NCBI GenBank assembly: GCA_958421325.1
Contig: CATZLO010000002.1
Coordinates: 529 to 64,528, forward strand
DNA: 64,000 nucleotides
Direction: 5' to 3'
Source of the DNA: an uncultured Bacilli bacterium
Lineage (GTDB): Bacteria > Bacillota_I > Bacilli_A > RF39 > UBA660
A program made the translations under genes and the position numbers. Below the pieces are notes generated by a model that saw only the letters and a list, made by a program, of their open reading frames with translations, searched no databases and was not told the origin of the DNA. This document shows positions 1,906 to 55,172 of this stretch, in pieces (position 1 is the stretch's first letter; the number at the start of each line of letters is the position of its first letter).

Positions 1906-1957
1906 ATTAATAAAAATGTGATCCAATTATATTGGAATAAGAAAGGTAGGTATTTGT

Positions 1958-2659: not shown

Positions 2660-2997
2660 GAGATTTATTTGATGAAATTGATGAAGAAAGAAAAGATTTG
2701 CCTAGATTGAAAAAGATAAGTAATGAAGTTCAAAAAAAGAGAAATTATAATTTTTATCAGCAATTAGCAGTGTGTTTATTTATATTCTTATTTATTGTGG
2801 GTGTAATTGTTGGTAATTTATTTCCAGCTTGTAGTGAGACATCAGAGCTATTTGCTACTTGTACCAAAACTGAATATAATTTATCTTTAACATTAATATT
2901 TTGGCTTGCTAGCTTTGTATTTTGTGCTATGATCTATGGACTTGGTGAAGTGATTAGATTGCTTAATATAATTGCAGATAATATTAGTAAAAAGTAA
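2656..2997 (+). CDS. Small membrane protein
   Basis: ATGA overlap with the upstream gene. Two hydrophobic helices. Confidence 0.4.
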   Translation: MRDLFDEIDEERKDLPRLKKISNEVQKKRNYNFYQQLAVCLFIFLFIVGVIVGNLFPACSETSELFATCTKTEYNLSLTLIFWLASFVFCAMIYGLGEVIRLLNIIADNISKK

Positions 2998-3109
2998 ATT
3001 GGAATAGAACTTGAAAATAGTAAATTCTATTTTTTCTTTATAGATAATTTGGTTAATAATAAAAATTTTAAGTTTATAAATTATGACATTTGTTTTTGAA
3101 TTTATGAGT

Positions 3110-3138
3110 TTGACAAGTATTTATCTGTATGATATTAT
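3110..3138 (+). promoter_or_regulatory. Sigma-A-type promoter upstream of the ABC exporter
   Basis: TTGACA (3110-3115), 17-nt spacer, extended -10 TGaTATTAT (3130-3138). Confidence 0.4.
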
Positions 3139-3301
3139 TAGTTGGATTAAAAGGGTAAGTGATTGATATGTTACTTTTATTTGTGGTTTAAATCAAAATT
3201 ATTTATGACGTATTTTGTAGTTGTTTACGGGATATGGCATCCTTTTATATGATATTTTTACAAACTACTGTAAAGTCGTTTTTTGTTGGAGGTGTAGTGT
3301 T

Positions 3302-5032: not shown

Positions 5033-5139
5033 AATTATAATCTATATTTAACTTATTTAAATTAACGTGCTGCTTTTTATAAAAACTCATGATATAATTG
5101 TAATGGTTATATTTTTAAATTGTAAAGGTGGTGTTCTTG

Positions 5140-7232: not shown

Positions 7233-7263
7233 ATTTATAAAATTTAAATTTTATATGAATAAA

Positions 7264-7296
7264 GGATAGTGTTTTATGGTTAATACTATCTTTTTG
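7264..7296 (+). terminator. Weak stem-loop plus T-run after the restriction gene
   Basis: GATAGT (7265-7270) / ACTATC (7285-7290) followed by TTTTT. Confidence 0.35.
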
Positions 7297-7323
7297 ATTG
7301 ATTTTATTTGTAACAAGACATAA

Positions 7324-7842
7324 TTATTTTTTGATAATATTCTCTAAAAATAATCCCATTAGGACTCCTCCGTTTGTTTCTTTCTTTTTATCTGCTTGTT
7401 TTATAATATTATCTCCTAGTTCTTTTAATACTTCCTCTGATTCTTCAGTATCTTTTCTTAATAGAGCATCCCAGTACTCATTATCTCTTAAGGTGTAATA
7501 GATTGGGTCTTTACCATTTGCTTTGATAATATTTGGAATGTTATCAGTACTAGTTTGTGATAATTATCTTTACTATTATATTTAAGGACTTCTTTAGGGA
7601 AACTTTATCAAAGTTAACTAATGTACCATTAAGTTTTTGATTATGCATTTCAGTTGCGAAACTTTTTATAATATTAATAATAGTATCTGCTTCATCTCTT
7701 GTAATATTATATTTTCCACATTCTTCACTAGTAATATTTACAGCTTTTAAGTGAAATTCAAAGAAAATGTCGGCTAAGTCTTTTCCTTTATTTATTTTTT
7801 CTACAACAAAAGGGTAATATCTTAAATCGGTTCTATAATATT
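7324..7842 (-). pseudogene. Remnant of an unidentified gene, internally frameshifted and 5'-truncated by the ISL3 insertion
   Basis: The minus strand reads as coding in two frames (..YYRTDLRYYPFVVEKINKGKDLADIFFEFHLKAV.. then ..DNIPNIIKANGKDPIYYTLRDNEYWDALLRK..ENIIKK*). The upstream part runs into the IS end. Confidence 0.4.
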
Positions 7843-9308
7843 TAGTGGGGATAGATAAAATTCTCGCTATTTTTATAAAATAAAAGAGACATATATAAGT
7901 CCTAAGATAAAATATAAATATTAACAATAAAAATATCGAAAGGATTTGATTATATATCTCAAGAAAATTATATAAGAAATTTATTAAATATTAAAGATAA
8001 AAATATAAAATTTTATAAAAACTTTTGTGAGGCTGGTATTAGTAAAGGTAAAAAATGTAAGTTTATTAATGCTTATTTATCTTATATTCCTACTCATTGC
8101 GAAAAGTGTGGTGTTATATTTGACTCTAAAGACGACTATGAGAAGAAAAGATTTTCTAATAGGTCCCCCTATGTTTTAATACCTAAAATATGTAAATTTA
8201 CTGCCTACCTTAAACTTGATAAACAACGTATTAAATGTCATCATTGTAACCAGTCTTTTACTTGTAAAACTGATTTAGTCGATTTTGGTTGTTTTATTTC
8301 TAACCCTACTAAACTTTCTATCGCTTCTGATTTAATAAAAAAAGAAGTGAAAAAGATATCGCCATTGATAATGATGTTTCTCCTAATACTGTTGAAAGAG
8401 TTATTGACTCTTATTATGATTCTAAAAAACTTTATAAGCATTATTTACCCGATGTTTTATGCTTTGATGAATTCAAATCTGTTAAATCTGCTGATGGTGT
8501 CATGAGTTTTAACATGTGTGATGGTACTAATGGCAAAACTATTGATATTGTTGAAGATAGAAAACCTTTTAGTCTTCTTAAATATTTTTCTTATTATTAC
8601 TCATAAGGCAAGAAGTAAGGTTAGGTTTATTGTTATTGATATGTATTCTCCTTATATTTCTCTTATTCTTAAGATGTTCCCTAATGCTTCTATTATTATT
8701 AATAAATTTCATTTGACTCAATTAATTTCCAAAGCTTTTAATAAAACTAGAATTATGGCTATGAAAAGGAATAAGAAAGACTATAGAAAACTTAAACGCT
8801 ATTGGAAATTGTTATTAAAATCTAGAGATGAACTTAAAGCCTCTGTATGGAAGAAATATACATGCTTTAATGATTTAACTACTGAAATTGATATTGTTAA
8901 TTATCTTATTAATTCTGATGATGAATTAAAAGATTCTTATCAAGCTTATCAAGATTTACCTTATGCTTTTCAACACAGTGATATTAAAGTATTAGAAGCT
9001 TCTTTAAATAATAATTATGAGCATCTTTCTTCATATATGACAACATCTATTAATACTCTAAAACGATTCCTACCTTATATTAAAAATACCTTTAATAATA
9101 ACTATCATAATGGTTATATTGAAGGAAATAACAACTTTATTAAAGTAATTAAAAAATTGCCTTTGGCTCTAGATCTTTTTCTCGATTTAAGGCTAGAATT
9201 ATGATTTGTAAAGGTCTAATTTTACCAAAAAGAAAAGAAGCATAATTCTATGCTTCAATTGATTATTTTGTCATTTGGATTTTCTTAAATCCCCACTATT
9301 TGACAAAG
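7843..9308 (+). mobile_element. Decayed ISL3-family insertion sequence
   Basis: Terminal inverted core TAGTGGGGAT (7843-7852) / ATCCCCACTA (9289-9298). The interior encodes an ISL3-type transposase in several frames. Confidence 0.7.
7930..9204 (+). pseudogene. ISL3 family transposase, multiple frameshifts
   Basis: Recognisable blocks: zinc-finger CEKCG..CHHCN, LCFDEFKSVKSADG.MSFNMCD, VIDMYSPYISLI..FPNA.III.KFHL.QLIS.AFNKTRI, KLKRYWKLLLK, GYIEGNNNFIKVIKK. The reading frame breaks near 8340, 8520 and 9150. Confidence 0.75.
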
Positions 9309-9439
9309 AAACTTTATATATTAAATTCGCACCAAATGCGAACAATTGTTCTGGCACGGAAACTGAACGAGTTTCCAAATTTTTAACGCCAAAGACTTTC
9401 TTTACAAAATCTATAACTATTTTACCATTTTTAATTGAT

Positions 9440-11149
9440 TTAAACAATAGTAATTATATTCTTCTGTGAACTTTCTTCATAATAACTATTAAAATTTCCA
9501 ACATCTAATAACCATAAACCAAAAACTTTTGATTTTTCAATGCAACTCTTAGGGTTAACTTTAATAATTTTAAACAACCACGGATTAACAAAATAGTCTT
9601 CTTCTTCTAAATAATCAACAACATCAAAGTCATACTTTTCTTGCAGTAATTCAATGTACTCTAAGGCATCTTTTTCATGTTTCATTTCTGCTATGCTTGC
9701 TTTATATACACCACTACCAACTATTTTATCTAACATATTACTATCTTCAAAATCTAATAGTTGTTTAACTTTATTTGATTTTAACTTCAAATCAGTTATT
9801 TCAATTTCGGTTATTTTGTTCCTTTTATTTTTAAGTTCCTTAATAACTACTGTATCAATGTAATTGTTAATAAACTCACATTTTGCCTCGTATGATGCCA
9901 TTTTCCATAACTCATTTAATTCTATGCTATCTAATAATTCCATTTTATCTTTAATGATTTTCTCATCAATAGCAAATCTTAATCTATGGTCTAATTTACA
10001 ATTATTAAATTTTTCTGCTGTTCTATTATCGGTTATATAATAATTATTTTTAATGATTGTACTAAGTTCTAATAAATTGTTTAATTCAGTAATTAAAGCA
10101 TTTTCTATAAGTTCTTCTCTAAGATAAATACCACAGTCCTTACACTTATAATAAAGATAATCATTTTTCATTTTATTTTTACAACCATTACAAGCAAGTA
10201 TTCGACCACAATGAGGACATACTAATCTTTGAATAAATAAGTAATTTTTAGACCGATAATAATTTCTACCATTTCTTGCTATCATTTCTTGGCAGTCATT
10301 ATATAATTCTTTACTTATTATTGCTGGAACAACTCCTATTATCTCCATAGTATCTTTATTTTTTACACTTTTACGATACTCATATACTCCCATATAAGAT
10401 TTATTATTTAATATCGTAGAAATAGAACTATCATTCCATTTTCTATAAATTATTTTTTCTTCGTTTGTTTCTTTATTTCTTCTAATACTTGATATTACTT
10501 TTGGATACTTTTCTTTTAATATCTTAGATATTTGAAAGTAAGTTTTACCACTAGCACATAACTCAAATATTTCTTTTACTATTTCCGCCTCATCTTTATC
10601 AATTTCCCATTCTTTTAATTTATGTTTACCACTATCATCTAATTTATGTTTATAGCCAAGTGGTGGCTTTCCTCCAATATGACCTTTATTAACTGCACTT
10701 TCAACACCTACTAATGTTCTTTCTTGTATCAGTTCTCTTTCAAACTGAGCAAATATTCCTAATATACGAGCAAACATCATACCTGCGGCACCAGTAGTAT
10801 CTATATTTTCACATAAGAACTCAATGCCACAATTATATTTTTTTAATTCTTTAAAAAATTCTTCAAAATCAATAATGCTACGACTTATTCTATCCATTTT
10901 AAAAGCCATTATCAAATTAAACTTACCTTTCTTCATATCCTTTAACATTTGCTGATAGGCAGGTCTGTTTTCAGCAGACTTGCCACTTATACCAGCATCA
11001 GTATATACTTTATATACTACATAATCATTAGACACACACCTTGCTTTTAATCTTTTTTCTTGCTCCTCTAAACTATGCCCTTCACGGGCTTGGTCTGTTG
11101 TGCTAACCCTAGTATAGATAGCAACTATTTTTTTATTTCCATTGTTCAT
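9440..11149 (-). CDS. Large serine recombinase (integrase of the left integrative element)
   Basis: N-terminal resolvase catalytic domain (VAIYTRVSTTDQ, MDRISRS), recombinase domain, zinc ribbon CPHCG..CKDCG, long coiled-coil C-terminus. 569 aa. Confidence 0.9.
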   Translation of the reverse strand: MNNGNKKIVAIYTRVSTTDQAREGHSLEEQEKRLKARCVSNDYVVYKVYTDAGISGKSAENRPAYQQMLKDMKKGKFNLIMAFKMDRISRSIIDFEEFFKELKKYNCGIEFLCENIDTTGAAGMMFARILGIFAQFERELIQERTLVGVESAVNKGHIGGKPPLGYKHKLDDSGKHKLKEWEIDKDEAEIVKEIFELCASGKTYFQISKILKEKYPKVISSIRRNKETNEEKIIYRKWNDSSISTILNNKSYMGVYEYRKSVKNKDTMEIIGVVPAIISKELYNDCQEMIARNGRNYYRSKNYLFIQRLVCPHCGRILACNGCKNKMKNDYLYYKCKDCGIYLREELIENALITELNNLLELSTIIKNNYYITDNRTAEKFNNCKLDHRLRFAIDEKIIKDKMELLDSIELNELWKMASYEAKCEFINNYIDTVVIKELKNKRNKITEIEITDLKLKSNKVKQLLDFEDSNMLDKIVGSGVYKASIAEMKHEKDALEYIELLQEKYDFDVVDYLEEEDYFVNPWLFKIIKVNPKSCIEKSKVFGLWLLDVGNFNSYYEESSQKNIITIV

Positions 11150-11834
11150 TTTTCTTTGCCTCTCTTTCTACTATATCGCTATATGTGTCAAATAGTTTTC
11201 GAGGTTTAACCTCTATTTTTGCTTTTTCTTGTTCACTCATTTTTATTCTCCCAAAACCTACAATTTCTTTCATAATTACAAAAACATCTCTACAAGTCCC
11301 CAAACAATTCCCATTATCGTCAAAAATAGGATTTTCTTCAAACCGAGATGTATCTTCTCCTAATAAATTTACCCAATTATATGGTGTTGTCGATTTAGGG
11401 TTTTTAACTTCAAATATGTTGAATTTAGGATAACATTTTGCTTTTCCCTTTTTTTCTTTTTTAATATTGTCATTTCTCTCTCTTTTAATTAGTGGTTTAA
11501 TGACTGGGGCATAAATATAAGAACTTTCTAATTGTAATTCATAATTATATTTATATAGTTCACCAATCAACTTATATAAATCTTCATCATTTTTTGCTAA
11601 TGTTTCCAAATTATACGAAAGTACAATATTAAATACTTTTGTTTTAATATCTTCAATCATTTTATTAAATTGTGGTTTTTTAACATTATCAGTATCAATA
11701 TATTCCTTAACTATATCTAAACCAAAATGCTTACAATATTTTTTTAAACGTTTTATTTGTTCATCTAAGGGTATTTCAACTTTAGAAGGTTTGCTACAAT
11801 ATATAGCAACCTCGTTTTTTACTAATATATTCAT
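11133..11834 (-). CDS. Resolvase-fold-like protein lacking catalytic residues, translationally coupled to the large serine recombinase
   Basis: N-terminus aligns by eye to the resolvase domain (VAIYCSKPS.. vs vaiYxRvSt; LETLAKNDEDL vs lDRlsR). The Arg/Ser/Asp-Arg positions are substituted. 17-nt overlap with the downstream LSR gene. Confidence 0.45.
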   Translation of the reverse strand: MNILVKNEVAIYCSKPSKVEIPLDEQIKRLKKYCKHFGLDIVKEYIDTDNVKKPQFNKMIEDIKTKVFNIVLSYNLETLAKNDEDLYKLIGELYKYNYELQLESSYIYAPVIKPLIKRERNDNIKKEKKGKAKCYPKFNIFEVKNPKSTTPYNWVNLLGEDTSRFEENPIFDDNGNCLGTCRDVFVIMKEIVGFGRIKMSEQEKAKIEVKPRKLFDTYSDIVEREAKKNEQWK

Positions 11835-11946
11835 TATTAGTCCTCCTTACATAATTTAATTTACTAGGAGGTTTTCTAAAACTATTCCAATTTAATTATA
11901 CTTATCATATAATATAAATAGGGAATTAGAAAACCCTACAACTTAT

Positions 11947-11986
11947 TATGAGGTTAGTACCTCGCTAAAGTTACTTTAACCTCATA
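11947..11986. other. Perfect 10-bp stem / 20-nt loop hairpin without flanking T-run (candidate recombination or replication site)
   Basis: TATGAGGTTA (11947-11956) pairs with TAACCTCATA (11977-11986). Not followed by a U-run on either strand. Confidence 0.4.
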
Positions 11987-12223
11987 TATCTTCAAGCATT
12001 ACTTTATGTAGTGCTTTTTATGTGCTGTCATTTATCACATTACCACCTACCTTTATTGAATAATAATTATAGTAGAATTTTACAAATAAACCAATCTACT
12101 ACTTACTAAGGGCAAAAATTTTTCCCTTGCACTTACATTATACTTAATTTGGTAGTATAATAATATATATCAATCGAACGCAATTTGTTAAATATTAGTT
12201 CGGTATATACGGGTGATAATATG

Positions 12224-13243
12224 AAATTGACTTATAGCGAAATATATGGAAAAGACACAAAAGGTAATGGCTATTGTTTACCTACATTAGAACTTTACTA
12301 TACTTATGAGGAAAGAAAACTGATACCTAAATCAAAATACTTAATAGAAGAAAAAGAAGAGGATAGTAATTTATATACTGCATATATACCTTTCTTTAGT
12401 ACATTTTTTGATGGGCTAAAGGAGGAAACCATATCAAAGTTAAAAAGTATATTTGATTTTACAAAAAAATATAACCGTAAAGATTACATTAGCAAAGAAA
12501 TATGGAAACCATTTTTATTTACATCTAATATTGCAATAGGAAACATCCAAAAAACTTACAATACCCACCTAGAAAAAGTAGAAAAACCTAATTCAAGACG
12601 ACCTCTATATAAAAAATATAACCGTAAAAGTGCTAATCAATTAGAAGTGGAAAAATATTATAAGAGTAGAGTCAGTAAATATAATCAAGAAATTGGTACT
12701 ATTCAGCGTAGCATATATAACGAACTAACAAATCATTTTTTAAATAACGTAAAACCTTCATTAAAACAAAATTATATAATTCAAAAAACAAGAGATAAAG
12801 ATTTACCTATATTAAGTATAATGAAACAAGGAGTATATGGTGGAATAATGAATATAGAATTTACTTTTGATTTTAGAAACGAATTAGAACTACTTTATTC
12901 CTTTTTGGAGTGTATTTTCCAATCTGATTATAACTATAAGATTAAAAGGTGTAATAATAAAGAATGCTTGAATTTTTACATAACATTAGATACCAAAACT
13001 AAACATTGCCCTTATTGTTTATCAACTATTAAAAAACTTCAAAAGCAGAAATATGAGAATAAAGATTTAGTTAAAATTGAAAGAAGGGTCTATCAGTTAG
13101 TTAATGCTCCTAATAGAAGAAATGAAAAAAAAGAATACTTAGGTACTAAACGAAAAAAAAAGAGAAAATTAGTAAATGGTATTATTACCGAAAAAGAATA
13201 TATTGATTGGCTTTTATCCTATTATAGAACTAAATATAACTAA
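12224..13243 (+). CDS. Hypothetical protein with C-terminal CxxC..CxxC zinc-ribbon-like motif and K/R-rich tail
   Basis: ATG 12224 inside track ORF 12185. Contains CNNKEC..HCPYC. No family recognised. Confidence 0.45.
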   Translation, partial: KLTYSEIYGKDTKGNGYCLPTLELYYTYEERKLIPKSKYLIEEKEEDSNLYTAYIPFFSTFFDGLKEETISKLKSIFDFTKKYNRKDYISKEIWKPFLFTSNIAIGNIQKTYNTHLEKVEKPNSRRPLYKKYNRKSANQLEVEKYYKSRVSKYNQEIGTIQRSIYNELTNHFLNNVKPSLKQNYIIQKTRDKDLPILSIMKQGVYGGIMNIEFTFDFRNELELLYSFLECIFQSDYNYKIKRCNNKECLNFYITLDTKTKHCPYCLSTIKKLQKQKYENKDLVKIERRVYQLVNAPNRRNEKKEYLGTKRKKKRKLVNGIITEKEYIDWLLSYYRTKYN

Positions 13244-13833
13244 TATTTTTTTACCATGTTATAAAAAGTATTAGGCTTTAACCCTAATAACTCCATTGCT
13301 TCTTTACTTTTAATCTCTTTATTTTTCCAACGACTAACCACAACATCAAAATCTTGTGGTTTTTCTATTTTTGGTCTACCAAACTTAACCCCATTATTTT
13401 TAGCATTAGTAATACCTTCTTTTTGCCTTTGTTTTATAAAAGTTCTTTCTTGCTCAGCAACATAACTTAATATTTGTAATACTAAATCACTAATAAAAGT
13501 TCCAAGCAAATCTTTATTCTTCCTAGTATCTAATAAAGGCATATCAATAACGACTATATCTGCCTTAATATTTTTAGTAATATCTTTCCACTCATCAATT
13601 ATTTGGTTATAATTTCTACCAAGTCTATCAATAGACTTAATAACCAACAAATCATTTTCCCTTAATATATGTTTTAATGTAATGTAATTTTCTCTATTAA
13701 AATCTTTACCACTTTGTTTATCGATATAAATATCTCTTTCATCAATACCATATTCTTTAAATGCTACTAATTGTCTTTCTTCGTTTTGCTCTTTGCTACT
13801 AACTCTAGCGTAGCCAAATATTTTACTTTTCAT
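13240..13833 (-). CDS. Small serine recombinase (resolvase/invertase family)
   Basis: IFGYARVSSKEQ catalytic serine block, IDRLGRN, C-terminal HTH. 197 aa. Confidence 0.85.
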   Translation of the reverse strand: MKSKIFGYARVSSKEQNEERQLVAFKEYGIDERDIYIDKQSGKDFNRENYITLKHILRENDLLVIKSIDRLGRNYNQIIDEWKDITKNIKADIVVIDMPLLDTRKNKDLLGTFISDLVLQILSYVAEQERTFIKQRQKEGITNAKNNGVKFGRPKIEKPQDFDVVVSRWKNKEIKSKEAMELLGLKPNTFYNMVKKY

Positions 13834-13839
13834 ATAAAC

Positions 13840-14070
13840 CTACCTCGCCAAATAATCGTTTGCTTCTTTTAAAACATTATCAATTATAGAATCGTTAACT
13901 AACTCATTATAATTAACCTTAATACATTTTCTTTGAAGCTCATCTATAAAATGTACTAATGCAATAGTATAAGGAAAGTAATGCTCATTTTCTTCTATGC
14001 CAGTTACTAAGGCATCTACATAACCATCACATATCCAGTCAACCAATTTTATTAAAATTGACTTATTCAC
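13840..14070 (-). CDS. Hypothetical small protein
   Basis: GTG 14070 lies 7 nt after AAGGAGGTG. The track ORF starts at 14091 inside the SD. Confidence 0.35.
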   Translation of the reverse strand: MNKSILIKLVDWICDGYVDALVTGIEENEHYFPYTIALVHFIDELQRKCIKVNYNELVNDSIIDNVLKEANDYLAR

Positions 14071-14195
14071 TTTATGACACCTCCTTACCATAAAATATAT
14101 AATATATGACTTTCAAAAAAGATACGAGCCGTTTTCTTTAAAAAAGTAGAAAAACTTTCCAAATATTTAAAAAGAATAGAAAAGACTTTTAACAA

Positions 14196-14233
14196 TACAA
14201 AAAAGACTTAAATTCTATTAAAATCTAAGTCTT
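14196..14233 (-). terminator. Rho-independent terminator after the HEPN gene
   Basis: AAGACTTA (14203-14210) / TAAGTCTT (14226-14233). On the minus strand it is followed by TTTTTTG. Confidence 0.6.
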
Positions 14234-14257
14234 TATAAACCTACACATTTTTAAATA

Positions 14258-15532
14258 TTATTTTAGATGTGTTATTAAATAATTCTCATCTACATTTATT
14301 CCTGCTAATGAATAAACCTCTAAATAAGCAACTGCCTTTATGAAATTTTTAACATCATACAACCATTGAATATCAATTTTTTTATATCTAATGGGATTAA
14401 AAGTTGGAATAGGTAATTCTTCTATATAATAACCATTATGTGAATAATAGTTTCTTAATGATCTAATTTCTTCTTCAATAATATTATTTTGTTGATTTTC
14501 AAAATATGTATCCTTAATCTTAGGGTATTTTTTTAATAATCCTATTAAAAAGTTAGTATTTTTTCCTTTATTCAACTTCTTTCTCATTTCAGTATCAGTA
14601 TATTCTAATACTCTATAATACTCTAAAAATTGTATTTCGGTTGAGGTAACCTTTCTATCAAAATTTAAAAAAGGAAAAAAACTATTACTGTTTTCATTTG
14701 TTATATTTAAAAATAAGTTAAACAATTTATCAAAATTAGTAATATTATTTTCTCTTTTGTCTAAATAAAAATTAGGTTGTTTTTCTTCCTTATCATTATT
14801 TTTAATATTATGGAATTCATAACTATTTTTTTTAGTATCATATATAGTCAATTCTTTACTCCTACCACTTGTAAGTAAAAATAGATGAATTACACTATCA
14901 ATTCTATTACTAATTTTTAAAACCGTATCTAAATCAACACTTTTTTGAAAAGCAATCTCTAAATATGCAGCTGGTTTGATATTAAGATTATATATGCTTC
15001 CACTATGACTATAACTGTTAATAAGTTTAATAATTATTTTATTATCTTTGTAAAAAGTACGAGAAATAATTTTTTCTTTTTGTTTTTTTGCTTCTATATT
15101 CATTTCATTTTCTTTCCTTTTAATAGTCATAGAAGCACTAGGGAATATATATTTAATATTATCATTATAATACACTATCTTTTTTATTTTAGTCTTATCT
15201 GTAAAGTGAGTAATAGGTGATAAAGCTTTATTTCCTACAATATACATTTGAGATGATATTATTGAATGAGGAATAGCATTAAAACTACTACTATTTATAC
15301 TACATCTATATAATGTTAGGGGATGATATGTACTATTTATCCCATAAAATATTTTTGTTTCTATCAACTTACCAAATTCGCTGTTATAAAAACCAAAAGT
15401 ACTAAATTTATCTATATCTTTTACTTTCAGTTCCAATCTATCTTCTTTTTTATTAACAATAACTAATTTTTGTTCTTCTTCATTTATTTCTTTAAAAGGA
15501 ACTAAATCTAAATAACCAAATTCATTATTCAT
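14258..15532 (-). CDS. ApeA-like HEPN-domain protein (candidate single-gene defence nuclease)
   Basis: C-terminal Rx4H motif (SLRNYYSHNGYY) preceded by FLEYYRVLEY helix. About 300-aa N-terminal domain. Architecture as recalled for ApeA. ATG 15532 follows GGTGG. Confidence 0.45.
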   Translation of the reverse strand: MNNEFGYLDLVPFKEINEEEQKLVIVNKKEDRLELKVKDIDKFSTFGFYNSEFGKLIETKIFYGINSTYHPLTLYRCSINSSSFNAIPHSIISSQMYIVGNKALSPITHFTDKTKIKKIVYYNDNIKYIFPSASMTIKRKENEMNIEAKKQKEKIISRTFYKDNKIIIKLINSYSHSGSIYNLNIKPAAYLEIAFQKSVDLDTVLKISNRIDSVIHLFLLTSGRSKELTIYDTKKNSYEFHNIKNNDKEEKQPNFYLDKRENNITNFDKLFNLFLNITNENSNSFFPFLNFDRKVTSTEIQFLEYYRVLEYTDTEMRKKLNKGKNTNFLIGLLKKYPKIKDTYFENQQNNIIEEEIRSLRNYYSHNGYYIEELPIPTFNPIRYKKIDIQWLYDVKNFIKAVAYLEVYSLAGINVDENYLITHLK

Positions 15533-15595
15533 AAATACCACCAAAAAATATTATACAATATTTTTATTATGTATCATAGGAATTTACGGTTTATT

Positions 15596-15685
15596 CCTCG
15601 CAAATTTCAATAAAAAAAGATAACTCAATATAATTTATACTAAATTACCTAAACGACCTTAAACTTACTAATATGCTGTTTTTTT
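15596..15685. repeat. Cassette-junction repeat copy R1 (AT-rich hairpin, T-run, TTGAAA)
   Basis: About 80 percent identical by eye to 16709-16800. Shared blocks TTTCAATAAAAAA, TAATATAATTTATACTAAA, CCTTAAACTTACTA. Confidence 0.6.
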
Positions 15686-15725
15686 ACTAACTATTCAATT
15701 TTTAAAACATATATTTTAAAACACA

Positions 15726-16670
15726 TTATTTTATAGCATTATAATAGTCATTGCATAATTGCAATAAATAGTCTTTTTTTACTATACTATCTAACCATTT
15801 GCTAGGTAAATTACCATAATATATTCCACTTAAACCGCCAACCAATGCTCCAATAGTATCACTATCATTTCCTAAATTGATGGCTTCAATGACACATTTA
15901 TCATAACTATTATTATTTATAAAACACCATATCACTGCCTCTAATGTATCAACAACAAAGCCCATACTACTAATACTATCTACATCTAATTTACTAATAT
16001 CGTTATTTAATAATTGGTCATAATATTTTATATTTTCCAAACTAAAATACTTTCTATAATTATATTTTCTTACATTACTATAAGCATTTTCTTTTTCCTT
16101 GCCACTTAATAACTCTATAACTAACAACACATATATAAAACAACCTAATATACTTATTTCATGGCTATGCGTAAGTGATGATATATCTTTTACTAAATTA
16201 TATATTTCATCATCATTTAATTTTTTATAATAACAATAGTAAACAATAGGTAATATTCGCATTAAACTACCATTACCATTATAATTAAAACCTTTCATAC
16301 CACATTCAGTTATCTTTTCATATCTTTTATTATGATAATTTCCTAAAGCAAAAAATGTTGCTCTGCCAATGCCGAATGCTTTATCTATGGCAATAAAATC
16401 TTTATTTGAAACCCATAAAATAAAATTATCCATAATACTTTCATAATTTATCTTGCCTTTATTATCTATAATTGATTTCATTGTAGCAATAACCATACTA
16501 CTATCATCAGACCAAACACCTTTTACACCAACTCTATCACTACTAATCATATCAATAACTTTATTATTTTTAAATAACTCTCTTTTTTTAAATTCTAATG
16601 GAACACCTAAGGCATCACCAATAATAAAACCTAATATTCCATTTTTCAATTTATTAAAATCACACATCAT
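15726..16670 (-). CDS. ADP-ribosylglycohydrolase family protein (DraG/ARH-like)
   Basis: Motifs GFIIGDALGVPLEF, WSDDSSM, GNGSLMRILP, LGNDSDTIGALVGGLSGIYYG. Confidence 0.85.
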   Translation of the reverse strand: MMCDFNKLKNGILGFIIGDALGVPLEFKKRELFKNNKVIDMISSDRVGVKGVWSDDSSMVIATMKSIIDNKGKINYESIMDNFILWVSNKDFIAIDKAFGIGRATFFALGNYHNKRYEKITECGMKGFNYNGNGSLMRILPIVYYCYYKKLNDDEIYNLVKDISSLTHSHEISILGCFIYVLLVIELLSGKEKENAYSNVRKYNYRKYFSLENIKYYDQLLNNDISKLDVDSISSMGFVVDTLEAVIWCFINNNSYDKCVIEAINLGNDSDTIGALVGGLSGIYYGNLPSKWLDSIVKKDYLLQLCNDYYNAIK

Positions 16671-16708
16671 TACCACCTAATTATATTATATATTAAATAC
16701 TTACTTAT

Positions 16709-16800
16709 TTCGCCTTTATTTCAATAAAAAAGAGTAACCTAATATAATTTATACTAAACTATATTAAATTACCTTAAACTTACTATAAATGCTAATTTTT
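16709..16800. repeat. Cassette-junction repeat copy R2
   Basis: Homologous to 15596-15685. Contains imperfect hairpin GTAACCTAATATA..TATATTAAATTAC, then a T-run and TTGAAA on the minus strand. Confidence 0.6.
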
Positions 16801-17626
16801 ACTTTATATACTCAACACCATCAATAATCAATGAGATAACATTTTTATTACTATCATATTTTATTTGGAACTCACTTCTTAACTTAGCACCAAAACTATT
16901 TTCACTATCTACATAGGCTTGCACTGTAACAATTCCATTATCTTTGCCAAACTTCCAATTATTTATATTAGGGAACTTTGCTGTACTTGGGGCCTTTAAT
17001 AATGACTTAATTCTTTCTTGGGCATCAATATTATACTCATTTTTCTCATCCCAACTGATTAAATAATCATTAAAATTCAACAATACCTTGCCATCTCTAT
17101 AAAAATCTTTATCTGCCCATCTTATACATATAATTTTATTATCACTACTAACATATAAAATTATATTATTATTTTGACTAAAACTGGCTTTAACTCTATA
17201 ACCTTTAGACCCAGCACCCTCATATTCATCTAATGCTTCATCTGCCTCTATACTATCAATTTCATCAATGCCAATGCTTTTAAAAATATTCTCCATTGCT
17301 ATTGCTTCTTCATTATTAACATTTAAACTACTTTTAATTTCTTTTACCATTTTTGAACTATTATCTACTGGCTCAACTTTTCCACCTGTCGCTATCATTG
17401 CAATTGCTACTACTAAAAATATTAAACCAACTGCACCACCAAATATAATAGCAAATATTTTACCAACACTTTTTTCTTTTGGCTTATCAACTTTTGGCTC
17501 CTTAATATTGCTTTCTTTCTTTACATATTTTTCTTTTTTACCCTTATTCTTAATAGCCTTAACTATAAAATAAATAGGCAATACTATAACCGCAACCCCT
17601 AACAACAAATAAAATAAATCTTCCAT
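16799..17626 (-). CDS. Hypothetical two-TM membrane protein with extracytoplasmic C-terminal domain
   Basis: Two hydrophobic helices separated by a K-rich linker. No family recognised. Confidence 0.45.
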   Translation of the reverse strand: MEDLFYLLLGVAVIVLPIYFIVKAIKNKGKKEKYVKKESNIKEPKVDKPKEKSVGKIFAIIFGGAVGLIFLVVAIAMIATGGKVEPVDNSSKMVKEIKSSLNVNNEEAIAMENIFKSIGIDEIDSIEADEALDEYEGAGSKGYRVKASFSQNNNIILYVSSDNKIICIRWADKDFYRDGKVLLNFNDYLISWDEKNEYNIDAQERIKSLLKAPSTAKFPNINNWKFGKDNGIVTVQAYVDSENSFGAKLRSEFQIKYDSNKNVISLIIDGVEYIK

Positions 17627-17757
17627 ATCTACACCTCACTATACATAATTATATATTATTTTAGCAAAATATACAATATCAATTATATAAATATAACTAA
17701 TATTGCTATCACTGATTTTTAATAATTCTAAAATTATATATAAAGGAGGGTAATCGC

Positions 17758-18090
17758 GTGGAGAATAATTTAAAACAAATTCGTAATAATAAAAATCTGT
17801 TGCAAACAAAAGTTGCTATGGATTTAAACATTACCCAAGAAGCTATATCTTCTTATGAAACTGGTAGGGTTTTCCCAAGTTCTGATATGTTAATTAAACT
17901 TGCTAACTACTACAATACATCTATTGACTACTTATTATGTCGAACTAAATATGATATGCCTATTGATGATGTTAAACCAAATAATATTTCCGATACTGAC
18001 TTTATCTTACTTAACAAAATCAACAAATTATCTACTACTAATAAAGCTAAAGTAGAGGGCTATATAGATGGTTTAAATGATAGTAAATAA
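17758..18090 (+). CDS. XRE-family helix-turn-helix transcriptional regulator
   Basis: LKQIRNNKNLLQTKVAMDLNITQEAISSYETGRVFPSSDMLIKLANYYNTSIDYLL. GTG start after AAAGGAGGG. Confidence 0.8.
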   Translation: MENNLKQIRNNKNLLQTKVAMDLNITQEAISSYETGRVFPSSDMLIKLANYYNTSIDYLLCRTKYDMPIDDVKPNNISDTDFILLNKINKLSTTNKAKVEGYIDGLNDSK

Positions 18091-18351
18091 TTATGCCACA
18101 GCCACATCTTCTGGCTTTGGCTTTTTTACTCCAATAAATTCTATTATTTCTATGTCTTTATATTTTTTAAGTAACTCCACATACTCTTTAACACTATTAC
18201 AATAAACAAATTTAACTTCTTCCTTATAAATTAAATCTAACCTTATAGGACTATCTTCTTTTATCCATACATAAATTTTTAAAATACCATTATTACCAAT
18301 GACTTTTTTTATTTTATCTAATTTATTTTCAATACTACTTAAACTAACCAT
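18091..18351 (-). CDS. Hypothetical small protein
   Basis: ATG 18351 overlaps the upstream gene's end by 8 nt. No motif recognised. Confidence 0.35.
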   Translation of the reverse strand: MVSLSSIENKLDKIKKVIGNNGILKIYVWIKEDSPIRLDLIYKEEVKFVYCNSVKEYVELLKKYKDIEIIEFIGVKKPKPEDVAVA

Positions 18352-18736
18352 TACTAGCACCAACCTTTTCATTTAATAATTCTTCTATCTCTTTCATCTT
18401 ATCCATAATATTTCTTTGTTCATTAAACTTTAATATCATATCTAAAATGCTTTTAGAAGCATTTAATCTAACATTACTACTAACATTTTCATCATCTAAC
18501 ATACTATTTAAGACTGTTATTGCCTTATTTCCAAGTAAATTTATCTTATCAATACAATTATCTACTATAATACTTTTTCTCTCGTTTAAAACTACTTTAA
18601 ACTCGGTATTAGCAAGCCATCTATTTAAAGTGGCTTCGCTAACACCTACATTCTTAGCACTTTCCACTATGCTATTGCCTTTTAATAATTCATTTATTGC
18701 TAATTCTTGTCTTACATTTAACTTACCCATAATCAT
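18344..18736 (-). CDS. HTH DNA-binding protein (phBC6A51-type / terminase-small-subunit-like HTH)
   Basis: LNVRQELAINELLKGNSIVESAKNVGVSEATLNRWLANTEF resembles the N-terminal HTH of small terminase-like phage proteins. Confidence 0.4.
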   Translation of the reverse strand: MIMGKLNVRQELAINELLKGNSIVESAKNVGVSEATLNRWLANTEFKVVLNERKSIIVDNCIDKINLLGNKAITVLNSMLDDENVSSNVRLNASKSILDMILKFNEQRNIMDKMKEIEELLNEKVGASNG

Positions 18737-18867
18737 TGCTCCTTTTATTATTTTTAGTAAAAATACTATTATTTCCTATTAAAAACTATTATTTTTACTG
18801 TCTTTTCTTTAATATTATATGTTTTTTTAATTATCTAATAGTTCTTATTATAATAGGGTAATCTAAT

Positions 18868-19593
18868 CTACTTAAAACCTTTATATTTATTATTATAAAA
18901 GCATTTTCTACTTACTGGTTTTGCCAATAAATTCAATTTTCGAGCAATATCAAAATAAGTAACTGTAAAACCTTTACTTTCAATAAACTGGGTTAAAATA
19001 CTTTGCTTCTCTATATATTTTATTATATGTTCATAATCTTCCTTTCTATTTTTGGTTTTTCTTCTATTCACATTCAAATTAGTTAAACTACATCTAGGAA
19101 CTCGCTGATTTTTATTCTTTCTCTTTGCTAATATTCCACTCATAAGGACATCTAAATTCTTGTTATACCCTTTATAGTAATGTTTATAAAAATTAGGGGT
19201 ATCGTAAACACTTTTATCAAATTCTTCTTTTGCTAATTTTTTATTTAATACTTTCTGCAAATATTCCTCAATATCTCTAACCATAGTACCTAATGGGGCA
19301 CCACAAACCATAACGTGTAAATGCCAATTAACATATTTAATTCCTTTTGTTATATTCTTAGGCATAAATTCAGTTCTAGGTCTGCCGACACCATTTGTCT
19401 TATATTTATAATCAACACTATCGCCATCAACATTAGATAAACCCACAAAGATACTGTAATCATAATCACTGCTTTTATATTTATATTTAATAAACTTAAT
19501 TAAATTATAATAGACTGCCTTCGCTTCATCTTCACTAAACAAATAATATATTGGGGTACTTAATAATGTAACACCAAATCTTCTATTACTCAT
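18868..19593 (-). CDS. Putative HUH-type rolling-circle Rep/relaxase-like protein
   Basis: Candidate motif 1 FGVTLLST, motif 2 NWHLHVMV (HUH), motif 3 YEHIIKYIEKQ (Tyr). Family not confirmed. Confidence 0.4.
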   Translation of the reverse strand: MSNRRFGVTLLSTPIYYLFSEDEAKAVYYNLIKFIKYKYKSSDYDYSIFVGLSNVDGDSVDYKYKTNGVGRPRTEFMPKNITKGIKYVNWHLHVMVCGAPLGTMVRDIEEYLQKVLNKKLAKEEFDKSVYDTPNFYKHYYKGYNKNLDVLMSGILAKRKNKNQRVPRCSLTNLNVNRRKTKNRKEDYEHIIKYIEKQSILTQFIESKGFTVTYFDIARKLNLLAKPVSRKCFYNNKYKGFK

Positions 19594-19883
19594 TAGACTG
19601 CCTCTTTCATAGTATCTAATATTAAATTTAGTTTTTTCATATCTATCGGCATTTTTCTATTATATAAAAACATATTATCTTCATCAAAGTACAGTACCAA
19701 TATCTTTTTACCATTTAATTTTATTAAAAATCTATGTGGCTCAATAAAACTTACATTAGTTCTATCTACATTTAGTATTCTTCCTTGCGTAAATTCATAT
19801 TTAGCACTATGAAAATCACAAGCTATTTTAATTTTCCTCTCAAACTTTTCATTTCTTCTTAAATCTACATAATCTTTTATCAT
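19593..19883 (-). CDS. Hypothetical small protein
   Basis: ATG 19883 follows GGAGGTG. ATGA-type overlap with the Rep-like gene. Confidence 0.4.
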   Translation of the reverse strand: MIKDYVDLRRNEKFERKIKIACDFHSAKYEFTQGRILNVDRTNVSFIEPHRFLIKLNGKKILVLYFDEDNMFLYNRKMPIDMKKLNLILDTMKEAV

Positions 19884-19907
19884 TTTCACCTCCAATTTTA
19901 TGGCAAA

Positions 19908-19941
19908 CTAAAACACGGACAAACTCTACGTTTTCCGTGCT
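19908..19941 (-). terminator. Terminator downstream of tRNA-Trp
   Basis: CACGGA (19915-19920) / TCCGTG (19935-19940). On the minus strand it is followed by TTTTAGTTT. Confidence 0.55.
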
Positions 19942-19983
19942 TTTATATATGTTTACTCCATATTTTTGGAGATTATCCACATC

Positions 19984-20057
19984 TGGCAGGGACATCAGGA
20001 TTTGAACCCGAATAGATGGTTTTGGAGACCACTATGTTACCATTACATCATGTCCCT
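19984..20057 (-). tRNA. trnW: tRNA-Trp (anticodon CCA), 3' CCA encoded
   Basis: Minus strand reads AGGGACA..GGTCTCCAAAACC..GGTTCAAATCC..TGTCCCTGCCA. 7-bp acceptor stem, anticodon loop CTCCAAA, T-loop GGTTCAAATCC. Confidence 0.9.
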
Positions 20058-20254
20058 ATAAAGCTCTTTTTAAGAGCAAATTTATTATAACATATTTTTA
20101 TTGTTTTTTAACACTATTTATTGTGTTTTACAATTTTTGAATTTGATTTAAATTATTGAGTTTGCCACCAATAGTGACCACACCTTAAATATCTAAATCT
20201 TAAAAACTCAATATTTACAAGGGATAATTGGCATTCCTTCTCTAAACAACAAGA

Positions 20255-20340
20255 GTTTTGGAGACTCCTATGTTTCCTATATGGGTTCTTTTTAGAACAT
20301 ATTAATTATAGCATAGTTTATAATGATTTGACAATATATT
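20255..20340 (-). pseudogene. Degenerate copy of the tRNA-Trp promoter, leader hairpin and D/anticodon arm
   Basis: GTTTTGGAGACTCCTATGTTTCC (20255-20277) vs GTTTTGGAGACCACTATGTTACC in the intact gene. The upstream hairpin GTTCTttttAGAAC parallels GCTCTTtttaAGAGC. The acceptor/D 5' part and the whole 3' half are missing. Confidence 0.5.
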
Positions 20341-20346
20341 TTTAAT

Positions 20347-20587
20347 GAAGAGGTGGACATACATTAGGATCCGGGGCATAGAAACAATGATTTTTAAATC
20401 TTCCTGCTAGGGTTTGATCATACCATGTACTAATACAGTTGTTATTTCTTCCAGGGGCATAGAACCATAAAGCATTAGTAGCAGGGTAGTAATATTCTCC
20501 TTTTAAGTTTCTTTCTGCTAGTTCTCTTTCTTTGATAGTAGAGCCTGATGTAAATTGTGGGCTGTTGATACCAGCGAAACCTCCAGG
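20347..20587 (-). pseudogene. cwlJ: cwlJ (SleB/CwlJ Hydrolase_2 family cortex-lytic enzyme), C-terminal fragment
   Basis: Minus strand reads (PGGF)AGINSPQFTSGSTIKERELAERNLKGEYYYPATNALWFYAPGRNNNCISTWYDQTLAGRFKNHCFYAPDPNVCPPLH*. It continues the N-terminal fragment at 53589-53782. Confidence 0.8.
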
Positions 20588-20606
20588 TTTTTGTTAGTTA
20601 GTACTA
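20580..20606. other. attL of the prophage (core CCTCCAGG plus phage arm TTTTTG-TTAGTTAGTACTA)
   Basis: Core at 20580-20587 is identical to 53589-53596. The 13-bp arm 20594-20606 is the exact inverted copy of 53570-53582. Confidence 0.75.
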
Positions 20607-21956
20607 TATAAAATTAACAGTTATGTTTTTGTTTTTGTCTATTGTTATATTATCAATAATACTTCGCCAAAGTCTTTGTTTTTCTACATCTGTTAAAGTG
20701 TCATAAATGGTTAAGAAATCCATTTTTAGAAACTTTTGTAGATTATCTATATTAATATTTTGCTCTTCTTGGTTCGCTTGTTCTTCTTTCTTTAACTCTT
20801 CTTTTAAATAGTTGTAGTCATTATTATACTTATCTTTGTCTATTAAATCATTAAGATATAGATCCACAAGTTTATTCATTTTATTTTTTATTTCTGTTGC
20901 TTTATTTTTTCTTGTTATCTTTTTCTTTTTATTTGCATTTAAGATATTATTTTCTGCTATTTTTAAAATATTTTCTTTTAAATAGTCCTCAATATACATT
21001 TCTGTTAATGCTGTTGTATTGATACAATTCCTTTCTACGTAGTGTTGTTTACATCTGTATATTTTTGTATAACCTGTTTTGGCACCTCTTGTTCCTCCTG
21101 CCATTTTAAAACCGCATTCTTCACATATTATTAAACCACTAAATATATAATCTCTCTTTGTGTTAGAGTTATATATTTTTATGTTTCTTTTTAATTCTTT
21201 TTGCACTCTGTAAAATTTATCTTCATCAATAATAGCAGGGCAGAAGTCTTCTATTAGTTCTTTGTTTTTAGTCGTTGTAAATTTTCCTATATATTTAGTA
21301 TCAGTAAGATAGTTTCTAATACTTCCTATACTCTTATTTCCTATATTATTTTTAAACCATTGATGAGTTTTTACTAAGCTTGATGTTTTTAAGTAGTAGT
21401 CATATAATTCATTTAATTGCTCTGCTTCTTTTTCATTAATTATAAGATGCTTATTTTTATCTATATCATAACCAAATATTTTAGCTCCTGTACAAACTGT
21501 CTTTGCAACTTTATATTTGTAGTTATTTACTCTATTAATACGTTCAGAGTCCTTATTTCTTTCGTGTTCTGCAAGGTTTACTTTAAGGTTGAATATAAAT
21601 CTACCATCAGCAGTAGAAGTGTCTATATCGTCCTCATCTATAGCTTTAAATGAAGTGTTATGTTTATCTAATTCTACTAGTAGGTTATTAGCATCTCTTA
21701 CATTTCTTGAAAACCTATCTAATTTTGTAAAAATGATTAAATCTATATTATCAAGGTCTTTAAGCAGTCTTACAAATTCTTTTCTTTTTGATATTGTTCC
21801 TGCTGATACACCTTCATCTATGTAATAGTCATATATTTTATATTTATTTCTTTTACAATATTGTGTTAAACTGTTCTTTTGATCGTCAACTGATATTCCA
21901 AACCTCTTTTGTTCTTCAGTTGATACCCGACAATATATTGCTACATTTTTAATCAT
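20604..21956 (-). CDS. Large serine recombinase (prophage integrase)
   Basis: VAIYCRVSTEEQ, LDRFSRN, recombinase domain, zinc ribbon CEECG..CKQH..C, coiled-coil C-terminus. The stop codon lies inside the att arm. Confidence 0.9.
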   Translation of the reverse strand: MIKNVAIYCRVSTEEQKRFGISVDDQKNSLTQYCKRNKYKIYDYYIDEGVSAGTISKRKEFVRLLKDLDNIDLIIFTKLDRFSRNVRDANNLLVELDKHNTSFKAIDEDDIDTSTADGRFIFNLKVNLAEHERNKDSERINRVNNYKYKVAKTVCTGAKIFGYDIDKNKHLIINEKEAEQLNELYDYYLKTSSLVKTHQWFKNNIGNKSIGSIRNYLTDTKYIGKFTTTKNKELIEDFCPAIIDEDKFYRVQKELKRNIKIYNSNTKRDYIFSGLIICEECGFKMAGGTRGAKTGYTKIYRCKQHYVERNCINTTALTEMYIEDYLKENILKIAENNILNANKKKKITRKNKATEIKNKMNKLVDLYLNDLIDKDKYNNDYNYLKEELKKEEQANQEEQNINIDNLQKFLKMDFLTIYDTLTDVEKQRLWRSIIDNITIDKNKNITVNFI

Positions 21957-54917: not shown

Positions 54918-54933
54918 TAGGGGGGGTTGGTTT

Positions 54934-55155: not shown

Positions 55156-55172
55156 TAATAAAAGACTATCTA

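Follow-up and report, generated by a model that had tools for sequence, protein, structure and literature searches.

What is the DNA that abuts the 3′ end of a tRNA-Trp gene in this genome, how was it inserted there, and by what means might it move from cell to cell? The window, as we call the whole stretch analysed, is a 64,000-nucleotide part (positions 529 to 64,528) of contig CATZLO010000002.1 from an uncultured Bacilli bacterium, with a G+C content of about 25%. A preliminary description, drawn from the letters themselves, had recognised between an ISL3 remnant and the tRNA an integrated mobilisable element or phage satellite of about 10.6 kb. We report here that this element is present in some and absent from other, nearly identical chromosomes, that its insertion is exactly at the 3′ terminus of the chromosomal tRNA-Trp gene, and that it has relatives at the same kind of site. 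The explanation that we prefer, with a probability of roughly 0.6, is a site-specific, excising, self-replicating and satellite-like element belonging to a family of gut Bacilli. Integration is well supported, and the route of transfer is deduced.

Ends of the element and the crossover site

Public assemblies were searched with the exact sequence of the large serine recombinase (LSR) encoded by the element and with that of a DUF3048 protein encoded in the flank, and near-identical chromosomes were recovered in three states. The preliminary description had suggested defining the empty site from related genomes that lack the element. Three such contigs were found (L008, L010 and L013), coming from three different samples and carrying the same chromosome without the element. 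L008 matches window positions 234-9360, then directly 19982-20593, at 99.7-99.8% identity. The two empty-site blast alignments overlap by 11 bp, which are exactly the 11-mer TCTGGCA[c/g]GGA, and the empty site reads GAACAATTGT-TCTGGCAgGGA-CATCAGG. Because the empty sites join position 9360 to position 19982 through one copy of the 11-mer, both the ends and the length of the element, 10,632 bp (9350-19981 or 9361-19992), are fixed. The ends had been expected near 9340-9360 and 19900-19992, and the three empty sites confirm them to the base.

The distal junction core, TCTGGCAcGGA, lies at 9350-9360. The proximal one, TCTGGCAgGGA, lies at 19982-19992, where it corresponds on the minus strand to the last 9 nt of tRNA-Trp (TCCCTGCCA, with the CCA encoded) followed by GA. 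These 11-mers, the tRNA 3′ end and the palindrome GAACAATTGTTC (9340-9351) were all found where the preliminary description had put them. With up to one mismatch, the 11-mer occurs at two places only in the 64 kb; the expectation from shuffled sequences is 0.20, and 2 shuffles out of 100 reach two matches.

The empty sites carry the “g” variant of the tRNA, and therefore the “c” at 9357 comes from the attP site of the element, which places the crossover within TCTGGCA. It was narrowed by the relative L024 to TGCCA, that is, the discriminator base plus the CCA of tRNA-Trp: in L024 and in L036-L041, TGCCA is the sole sequence common to the two junctions. The corresponding crossover zone of the window is 9350-9354, which reads TGCCA on the tRNA strand. 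As the crossover lies inside TGCCA, the tRNA-Trp gene stays intact. This tRNA-Trp(cca) gene, the integration target, occupies 19984-20057 on the minus strand (ARAGORN; 62.2 bits with the Rfam tRNA model) and is the sole tRNA gene in the window. It is retained in the empty-site contigs, and for this reason the possibility that the tRNA forms part of the element was rejected.

The element end next to the LSR gene (the P arm of attP, 9361-9439) reads ...AAATTTGGAAACTCGTTCAGTTTCCG on the minus strand and contains a hairpin, GGAAAC-N7-GTTTCC. It is kept at the distal junction of L024 and L036-L041, and in a solitary attP-like contig, L033, to which we return below. The end next to the tRNA (the P-prime arm, 19896-19981) contains two hairpins and a promoter-like match for the first gene, orf100; its sequence, GATGTGGATAATCTCCAAAAATATGGAG..., is nearly unchanged 3′ of divergent tRNA-Trp genes in L022-L024. 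The hairpins found downstream of the tRNA are supplied by the element itself. When the two ends are joined, the reconstructed attP junction contains GTTCAGTTTCCGTGCCAGATGTGGATAATC. The preliminary description had counted a lack of the 11-mer match in other copies of the element as a refutation. This check did not refute it: other copies keep TTTCCGTGCCA distally and a tRNA proximally. The 11-mer turned out to be partly host-specific, TGCCA alone being common to both junctions across hosts.

A prophage lies on the other side of the tRNA. The three empty-site contigs are also without this prophage, and in L001/L007 and L011 the element is present and the prophage absent. Because the states separate among the contigs, the element is independent of the prophage. 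Among the samples that carry the element are ERZ27242107 and ERZ28616973. Presence/absence polymorphism and occurrence without the neighbouring prophage both support the proposal of an integrated mobilisable element or satellite, and the genes listed for it (an LSR and its partner open reading frame (ORF), a small resolvase, an XRE regulator, a helix-turn-helix (HTH) protein, an HxH protein and three cargo genes) are present as described.

Related elements and the presumed integrating enzyme

Loci encoding homologs of the LSR, and loci encoding homologs of the 241-aa HxH protein of the element, were compared. About 20 related elements were found in uncultured gut Bacilli, with sizes of 7.0-10.6 kb, each abutting a tRNA 3′ end, either Trp (L022-L024, L036, L037, L039, L040, L041) or His (L016/L031, L021, L025-L030, L032). 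In the 21 loci with that end on the contig, the tRNA gene ends some 90-110 bp upstream of the orf100 homolog, with the exception of L038, where another LSR gene is found directly upstream of orf100. A universal core is made of orf100, the HxH...Y protein, the XRE regulator, variable cargo, a small invertase-like resolvase and the LSR.

The bodies of the target tRNAs vary between hosts, and the sequence following the CCA is nearly constant for each type (GATGTGGATAATCTCCAAAAATATGGAG... for Trp, TTTATGGGAAAATCAAACCTTTTGGTTTG... for His). At the other end, a conserved arm of the element (...TTTGGAAACTCGTTCAGTTTCCGTGCCA for Trp, ...AAAGGTTTAATGCCTATTGGAATTTTGCCCCA for His) gives way to host DNA that is unrelated and in many cases a terminator hairpin. 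Across hosts, the two junctions have 5 bp in common in the Trp type (TGCCA) and 6 bp in the His type (GCCCCA); in L016 the direct repeat at the tRNA-His is perfect over 12 bp. Because the host half of attB beyond the CCA differs in every host, recognition would be mainly by the tRNA half, and the T-arm/acceptor half of the tRNA is probably the sequence-specific half-site.

The presumed integrase is the 569-aa LSR (9440-11149, minus strand), whose gene is placed at the end of the element, 80 bp from the distal junction. It matches Pfam Resolvase (1.2e-36, residues 9-157), Pfam Recombinase (9.9e-18) and the integrase family phrog_95 (4e-103), and the motifs YTRVSTTDQ and MDRISR are present in the alignment. 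Its C-terminal part gives no match to the Zn_ribbon_recom model, and a cysteine cluster, CPHCG...CKDCG, is visible there in the translation. The short common core of 5-6 bp at the junctions fits what is expected of a serine integrase, such cores being typical of serine and not of tyrosine integrases. A tyrosine recombinase is encoded in none of the ~20 family members.

The comparison of Trp-type with His-type elements separates the genes into two groups. The small resolvase (83-90% identity), the XRE regulator (78-96%), the TerS-like protein described below (68-81%) and the HxH protein (69-82%) are well conserved between types, in contrast to the LSR (~32%) and orf100 (30-44%). When Trp-type elements are compared with one another, identities are 52-83% for the LSR and 77-97% for orf100. 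Since the type of LSR follows the target tRNA while that of the small resolvase does not, and since the core is 5-6 bp long, we infer that the 569-aa LSR is the integrase and catalyses attP x attB recombination. In a circle, LSR, attP and orf100 would follow one another in this order, and they therefore look like one exchangeable module deciding the target. The orf100 gene itself (19593-19895, minus strand; 100 aa, called as 96 aa; no family match) is the first gene next to the tRNA. We regard this gene, which would adjoin attP in a circle and whose type changes with that of the LSR, as a candidate for the directionality factor.

The second recombinase-related gene, encoding a 233-aa resolvase-like protein (11133-11834, minus strand), overlaps the start of the LSR gene by 17 nt. 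Its Pfam Resolvase match (1.1e-8) covers profile positions 15-99 only, it has a weak match to NCBIfam CcrB, and the alignment shows neither RVSTxxQ nor DRxxR, nor the C-terminal domains. In L036-L039 the LSR gene is overlapped by the gene for a homolog of 239 aa with 55% identity; elsewhere in the family a remnant or nothing is found, and the gene was scored absent from L016-L029. The “LSR partner” of the preliminary description is thus real as an overlapping gene, one that recurs in a sister subfamily, but it has no catalytic motifs and several relatives do without it. We infer that it is a recurrent, dispensable and catalytically dead accessory of the LSR.

The sister subfamily just mentioned (L036-L042, at tRNA-Trp) is abundant, and lacks both the TerS-like gene and its neighbour orf93. 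Two other copies show damage: L024 is a decayed copy of 6.3 kb with its LSR cut to the C-terminal 170 aa, and in L023 the LSR match is split.

Two further observations were made on these loci. In L021 (17475-19710), L028 (13672-15177) and L038 (779-2383), a second, different LSR gene lies directly after or before the element, and L021 shows in addition a weak match to orf100; LSR elements may therefore stand in tandem at a single tRNA. Some elements also contain tRNA genes, a second tRNA-Trp(cca) in L037 and L038 (both at 7679-7751) and a tRNA-Phe in L023 (13832-13905).

Possible replication, packaging and way of life of the element

The gene following orf100 encodes the 241-aa protein (18868-19593, minus strand), which defines a new family. 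No match was obtained with Pfam, PHROG or NCBIfam, a PDB sequence search was empty, and a full profile search of 1.84 billion representative proteins returned 16 relatives only. The close homologs all come from gut metagenomes or metagenome-assembled genomes labelled Bacilli, “Tenericutes”, “Mycoplasma sp. CAG:776” or Candidatus Onthocola. An alignment that includes the distant relatives (identity as low as 19%) and the sister-subfamily proteins of 266-270 aa shows S53, G70, H91, H93, Y111 and Y193 to be invariant. In the AlphaFold2 (AF2) model, of mediocre quality (pLDDT 64.7), the HxH motif (H91 and H93, WHLHVMV) is on a strand (91-99) and Y193 (YIEKQS) on a helix (184-197), the alignment being weak at the latter place for the 266-aa subfamily. 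Rep proteins recur among the weak viral fold matches in BFVD, and two distant relatives have sub-threshold matches to REP_ORF2-G2P. From motifs and model together, the protein is a probable HUH-type replication initiator or nickase of a new family. The label “Rep-like HUH” given earlier agrees with the invariant HxH and tyrosine, but finds no significant family or fold match.

Adjacent to this gene is a conserved non-coding region with iteron-like repeats (18737-18867, minus strand), which reads CTATTATAAT ... ACATATAAT ... AATAATAG-N5-AATAG-N3-ATAATAG. Nine loci, in which the flanking proteins are just 65-97% identical, keep the segments CTATTATAAT and ACATATAAT and three repeats of the ATAATAG kind unchanged. 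The region is a candidate origin, pac site or operator. At the same position the sister subfamily has a different, repeat-rich spacer of 240 bp.

Beyond this region lies the gene for a TerS-like protein of 130 aa (18344-18736, minus strand), so named for its resemblance to small terminase subunits (TerS). It matches phrog_2538 (3.5e-8) and phrog_7344 (1.2e-7), both terminase small subunits, over profile positions 2-92 of 129. Its AF2 model (pLDDT 84) consists of an N-terminal HTH (helices 8-42) and two long helices (44-81 and 87-128). The top Foldseek match is 2AO9 (E 0.01, probability 1.0, TM 0.43-0.53), a protein of a Bacillus cereus prophage whose entry has nine chains, followed more weakly by the small terminases 7JOQ, 4DZJ and 7UXE; none is under E 0.001. 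A tblastn search of 50,697 phage records gave matches only in three records of 9-10 kb named “Streptococcus satellite phage” (Javan230, Javan228 and Javan343). There the homolog, 22-29% identical over 92% of the length of the 130-aa protein (E 4e-7), is located downstream of the replication genes of the satellites, and that of Javan230, the sole one scanned, also matches small-terminase PHROGs. Within the family, the gene is present in the element of the window and in its tRNA-His relatives, always together with orf93 (18091-18372, minus strand; 93 aa, no family match), which is 55-89% identical in TerS-bearing relatives and absent from the sister subfamily. The element encodes no large terminase (TerL). 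The terS-like gene of the preliminary description is real, but the sister subfamily does without it and the satellite reading built on it is insecure.

The small serine recombinase (197 aa, 13240-13833, minus strand) is of the invertase/resolvase type (Pfam Resolvase, 1.2e-25; phrog_125 DNA invertase, 1.9e-48). It is a core gene, with 74-90% identity in every complete relative, whether at tRNA-Trp or at tRNA-His. Just upstream of it, a small conserved ORF of 83 aa, called as 76 aa (orf83, 13840-14091, minus strand), has no family match, and its homologs are found at the same position in relatives with 29-51% identity. The XRE-family regulator (17758-18090, plus strand; Pfam HTH_3 2.8e-13, phrog_8 7.8e-22) is 72-100% identical across the family. 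Its gene is central in the element, convergent with the orf100-HUH-TerS-orf93 operon and divergent from the cargo genes.

The following life cycle can be proposed. The LSR would catalyse attP x attB recombination at the CCA end of tRNA-Trp, with orf100 acting as directionality factor and the 233-aa protein as a variant-specific accessory of the LSR. The excised circle would then be replicated by the HxH...Y, HUH-like protein at the iteron-like region, and the invertase-type small recombinase would resolve multimers, two roles read from motifs only. In the TerS-bearing subfamily, the TerS-like protein would redirect the packaging of a helper phage to the element, which is the most speculative step. 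The slot between the XRE gene and the recombinase module would carry exchangeable accessory genes, such as ADP-ribose-removing enzymes, an ApeA-like HEPN protein and a membrane protein. Such a cycle is suggested by the integrase, the regulator, the putative initiator with its repeats, the TerS-like gene, the accessory cargo, and a size of 0.32 of that of the adjacent prophage. With 10,632 bp, a presumed integrase at one end and no structural or lysis matches among its ORFs, the element resembles a phage-inducible chromosomal island (PICI; about 10-15 kb) in these respects.

Several results weigh against this satellite-like, self-replicating life cycle. With Pfam, PHROG, NCBIfam, PDB and Foldseek, the 241-aa protein matched none of the known HUH families significantly, either by profile or by fold, the best Foldseek E values being 0.036 (PDB) and 0.011 (BFVD). 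Dyad symmetry in the reconstructed attP has its best centres (TG for Trp, GC for His) within the allowed crossover zone, but these are no better than in shuffled sequences. The XRE gene is not placed like the master repressor of PICIs, which forms a divergent pair next to the integrase. As the sister subfamily lacks the TerS-like gene and orf93, packaging piracy is not the general strategy of the family. No helper phage was identified, and the TerS-like protein has no similarity to the TerS and HNH proteins of the neighbouring prophage. The complete element had no megablast match in the phage and plasmid collections, protein-pattern searches of IMG/VR for the HUH-like and TerS-like families gave nothing, and no excised circle was found by attP searches of metagenome contigs and IMG/VR.

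The main rival is an integrative and mobilizable element, in which the LSR would still integrate and excise, transfer would be conjugative with the HxH protein as relaxase, and the TerS-like protein would be a DNA-binding accessory. Mobilizable elements with an LSR do exist in Clostridia (Tn4451 and relatives), and Rep-related proteins are used as relaxases in Firmicutes (PMC5704250). This explanation would also account for an HUH-like gene that is universal in the family next to a TerS-like gene that is optional, and it agrees with the absence of family members from viral contig collections. We nevertheless find it unlikely. None of the element ORFs matches a canonical relaxase, a coupling protein or a type IV secretion system family, the TerS-like protein fits small-terminase profiles over most of its length and has its sole phage-collection relatives in satellite prophages, and nothing is on record about conjugative elements of these small-genome hosts.

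Alternatively, the element might be a decaying island, or an integrated replicon that is not transmissible and is inherited only vertically, its TerS-like and HUH-like genes being relics. The decayed copy L024, a 6.3-kb remnant, the split LSR match of L023 and the failure to find a circular form would be explained in this way. In the window copy, however, all core ORFs are intact, and strains with ~99.7% identical flanks differ by the presence of the whole element. Moreover, near-identical element ends are found by divergent tRNA-Trp genes in different species, which requires recent horizontal movement. A purely vertical history is, for these reasons, quite improbable.

The exact attP sequence was searched for in IMG/VR, where nothing was found, and in metagenome contigs, where one match was obtained in a human gut contig of 2x coverage (L033, ENA OURU01007286.1, positions 1715-1798). 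This contig contains a contiguous attP that matches both element ends, with 98-100% identity over ~95 bp. The two ends therefore exist joined in nature. The flanks are unrelated to the element: a frameshifted tyrosine integrase gene some 1.2 kb away, an adjoining Fic gene and an M78 peptidase gene were found, and no LSR, HUH or tRNA gene. L033 was therefore rejected as an excised copy, only the ~95 bp around attP being shared. The contig speaks for the last alternative, that the element hitch-hikes on a shared att site and is integrated in trans by a tyrosine integrase, or else by the small 197-aa serine recombinase; tRNA 3′ ends are classical targets of tyrosine integrases, and serine integrases have been stated not to be known to use them (PMC4383910), but the ~20 family members encode no tyrosine recombinase, the LSR and not the small recombinase tracks the tRNA target, a core of merely 5-6 bp is serine- and not tyrosine-like, and the L033 contig may be chimeric, so that we regard this origin as very improbable.

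A broader claim can be formulated for the satellite-like family as a whole. The elements would be replicons for which the tRNA T-arm/acceptor-CCA is practically the only specific half of attB; retargeting between Trp and His would have occurred at least once by exchange of the LSR-attP-orf100 module; the 233-aa protein and orf100 would be new LSR cofactors; and the HxH...Y protein would found a new family of HUH initiators. All parts taken jointly, this claim is tentative, and we see it as possible rather than probable.

Known systems, accessory genes and neighbouring sequences

The closest systems for comparison are the PICIs and the streptococcal satellite prophages that gave the TerS-like homologs (Javan230, Javan228 and Javan343). 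They are similar in size, ~9-10 kb, and like the element they have an integrase gene at one end, an HTH regulator and a replication module, they have no structural or lysis genes, and the streptococcal satellites share the TerS-like homolog and carry an accessory gene of the abortive-infection type. They differ in using a tyrosine recombinase instead of an LSR, and a primase/helicase or DnaD/DnaI-type module instead of an HxH...Y protein. The element differs also by an XRE gene that is not divergently paired beside the integrase, by the small invertase-type recombinase in its core, and by a sister subfamily without the TerS-like gene.

Some LSR systems resemble the element in other respects. 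PLE of Vibrio cholerae is a phage satellite of ~18 kb that is integrated by an LSR and has its own initiator, of the RepA_N type. It is inserted in Vibrio cholerae repeats and not at a tRNA, and the likeness is by description only. SCCmec is inserted by LSRs at the 3′ end of rlmH without inactivating it, and its CcrA and CcrB are full-length and catalytically competent. Insertion at the 3′ end of a conserved gene and an adjacent pair of recombinases are thus common to SCCmec and the element, but the partner encoded by the element has neither catalytic motifs nor C-terminal domains, and the target is a tRNA gene. Tn4451 and Tn4453 are likewise small Firmicute elements moved by an LSR, with recombination at a 2-bp identity (PMC5704250); unlike the element, which has strict tRNA-end specificity and no recognisable relaxase, they have low target specificity and a Mob relaxase.

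The tycheposons of Prochlorococcus are small integrative elements that sit at tRNA genes and combine a site-specific integrase with a replication module and cargo that can be exchanged; some have terS. Large serine recombinases are carried by 27 of 937, and the genes listed for them include small serine recombinases as well (preprint 10.1101/2020.12.28.424599). Their hosts are Cyanobacteria and not Bacilli, their replication genes are polymerase, primase or helicase genes, and here too the likeness is by description. Because tycheposons include LSR carriers associated with tRNAs, and PICI-like ones with terS, the kind of element is already known. The family in gut Bacilli is undescribed, and the combination is new: an LSR at the CCA end, modules whose exchange switches the target, a so far unclassified protein of the HxH...Y kind, and a TerS-like protein that streptococcal satellites also have.

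Serine integrases are workhorses of genome engineering, and their usual site is inside a protein-coding gene. Mobilizable elements with serine recombinases insert within genes according to a 2017 review (PMC5704250). With ~20 mapped insertions, the family provides natural serine-integrase elements at the CCA end of tRNA-Trp or tRNA-His, which leave the tRNA intact and have an unconserved downstream flank across several hosts. If the assignment of the enzyme is true, these integrases would find a conserved landing site already in place in many bacteria, and their comparison would be a natural experiment in integrase target change. They would also offer a first handle on the mobile elements, and possible satellites, of small-genome gut Bacilli, with their ADP-ribose-removing and HEPN-like cargo. 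Were the tRNA half essentially the sole specific half of attB, one integrase could enter many species without damage to the tRNA.

The cargo slot, from the XRE gene to orf83, contains three genes in the window, all on the minus strand. The first (14258-15544) encodes a 428-aa protein with an ApeA-like N-terminal part (Pfam ApeA_NTD1 4.9e-5, 23.4 bits, under the cutoff of 25.5 bits), and an R-x4-H, HEPN-like motif, RNYYSH, can be read from the translation near its C-terminus. The second (15726-16676) encodes an ADP-ribosylglycohydrolase (Pfam ADP_ribosyl_GH 1e-59; NCBIfam Tri1 model 2e-39, under cutoff). The third (16799-17626) encodes a 275-aa protein with N-terminal hydrophobic segments, which matches phrog_26910, of unknown function (1.6e-58), and is 80-83% identical in L025 and L026. 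In relatives, the slot contains ADP-ribosylglycohydrolase or Macro-domain genes, genes for PH_gly_zipper or phrog_26910 membrane proteins, ApeA-like genes, DUF4268 genes and others. The cargo had been called defence-type. The ApeA_NTD1 match is below threshold and PADLOC recognised no known defence system among the cargo, so that the label is weak and should be taken as a suggestion.

Outside the slot, a 352-aa ORF with a Cys-rich C-terminal part (12185-13243, plus strand) has no match in Pfam, PHROGs, PADLOC or NCBIfam. No homolog was found in any of the related loci, and it is thus variant-specific. A repeat of 57 nt (79% identical, extending to ~75 nt) was seen upstream of the ApeA-like and ADP-ribosylglycohydrolase genes, at 15591-15647 and 16705-16761. 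It could be a shared promoter or operator, or a cassette boundary.

To the left of the element, a degenerate ISL3 transposase gene (8027-9309; fragments, among them a 228-aa ORF at 8518-9204) ends ~40 bp from the tRNA terminator hairpin, and several short-read contigs break at 9281, as expected of a repeat edge. Further left, at 5128-7232, is a type II restriction-modification pair, made of a Dcm-type C5 methylase and an NgoFVII-like endonuclease with a B3-like DNA-binding domain. Both the ISL3 remnant and the restriction-modification genes were rejected as parts of the element, since they are present in the empty-site contig L008. An ABC transporter to the left of the element is also in the empty-site contig, and like them belongs to the chromosome or to older insertions.

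To the right, the prophage (20577-53601) is an insertion of 33,008 bp with a 17-bp repeated core (20577-20593 and 53585-53601), which splits a 143-aa Hydrolase_2 gene (SleB-like cell-wall hydrolase); this gene is uninterrupted in L001, L008, L009 and L010. The prophage encodes its own LSR of 450 aa (20604-21956). Besides this serine integrase at its end, it contains a tyrosine-integrase-like ORF of 466 aa (28890-30290; phrog_1, 1.8e-64). It was dropped as the obvious helper, its HNH/TerS/TerL packaging set being unrelated to the TerS-like protein of the element. The size of the element is 0.32 of that of the prophage, and three copies (31,896 bp) make up ~97% of the prophage length, a ratio familiar from satellites packaged as multimers, which may be a coincidence. 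Beyond the prophage, at 53865-57898, two DUF3048 paralogs (~86% identical over 383 nt) are separated by an IS3-family insertion sequence (rve and HTH_Tnp_1 ORFs, 55213-56579).

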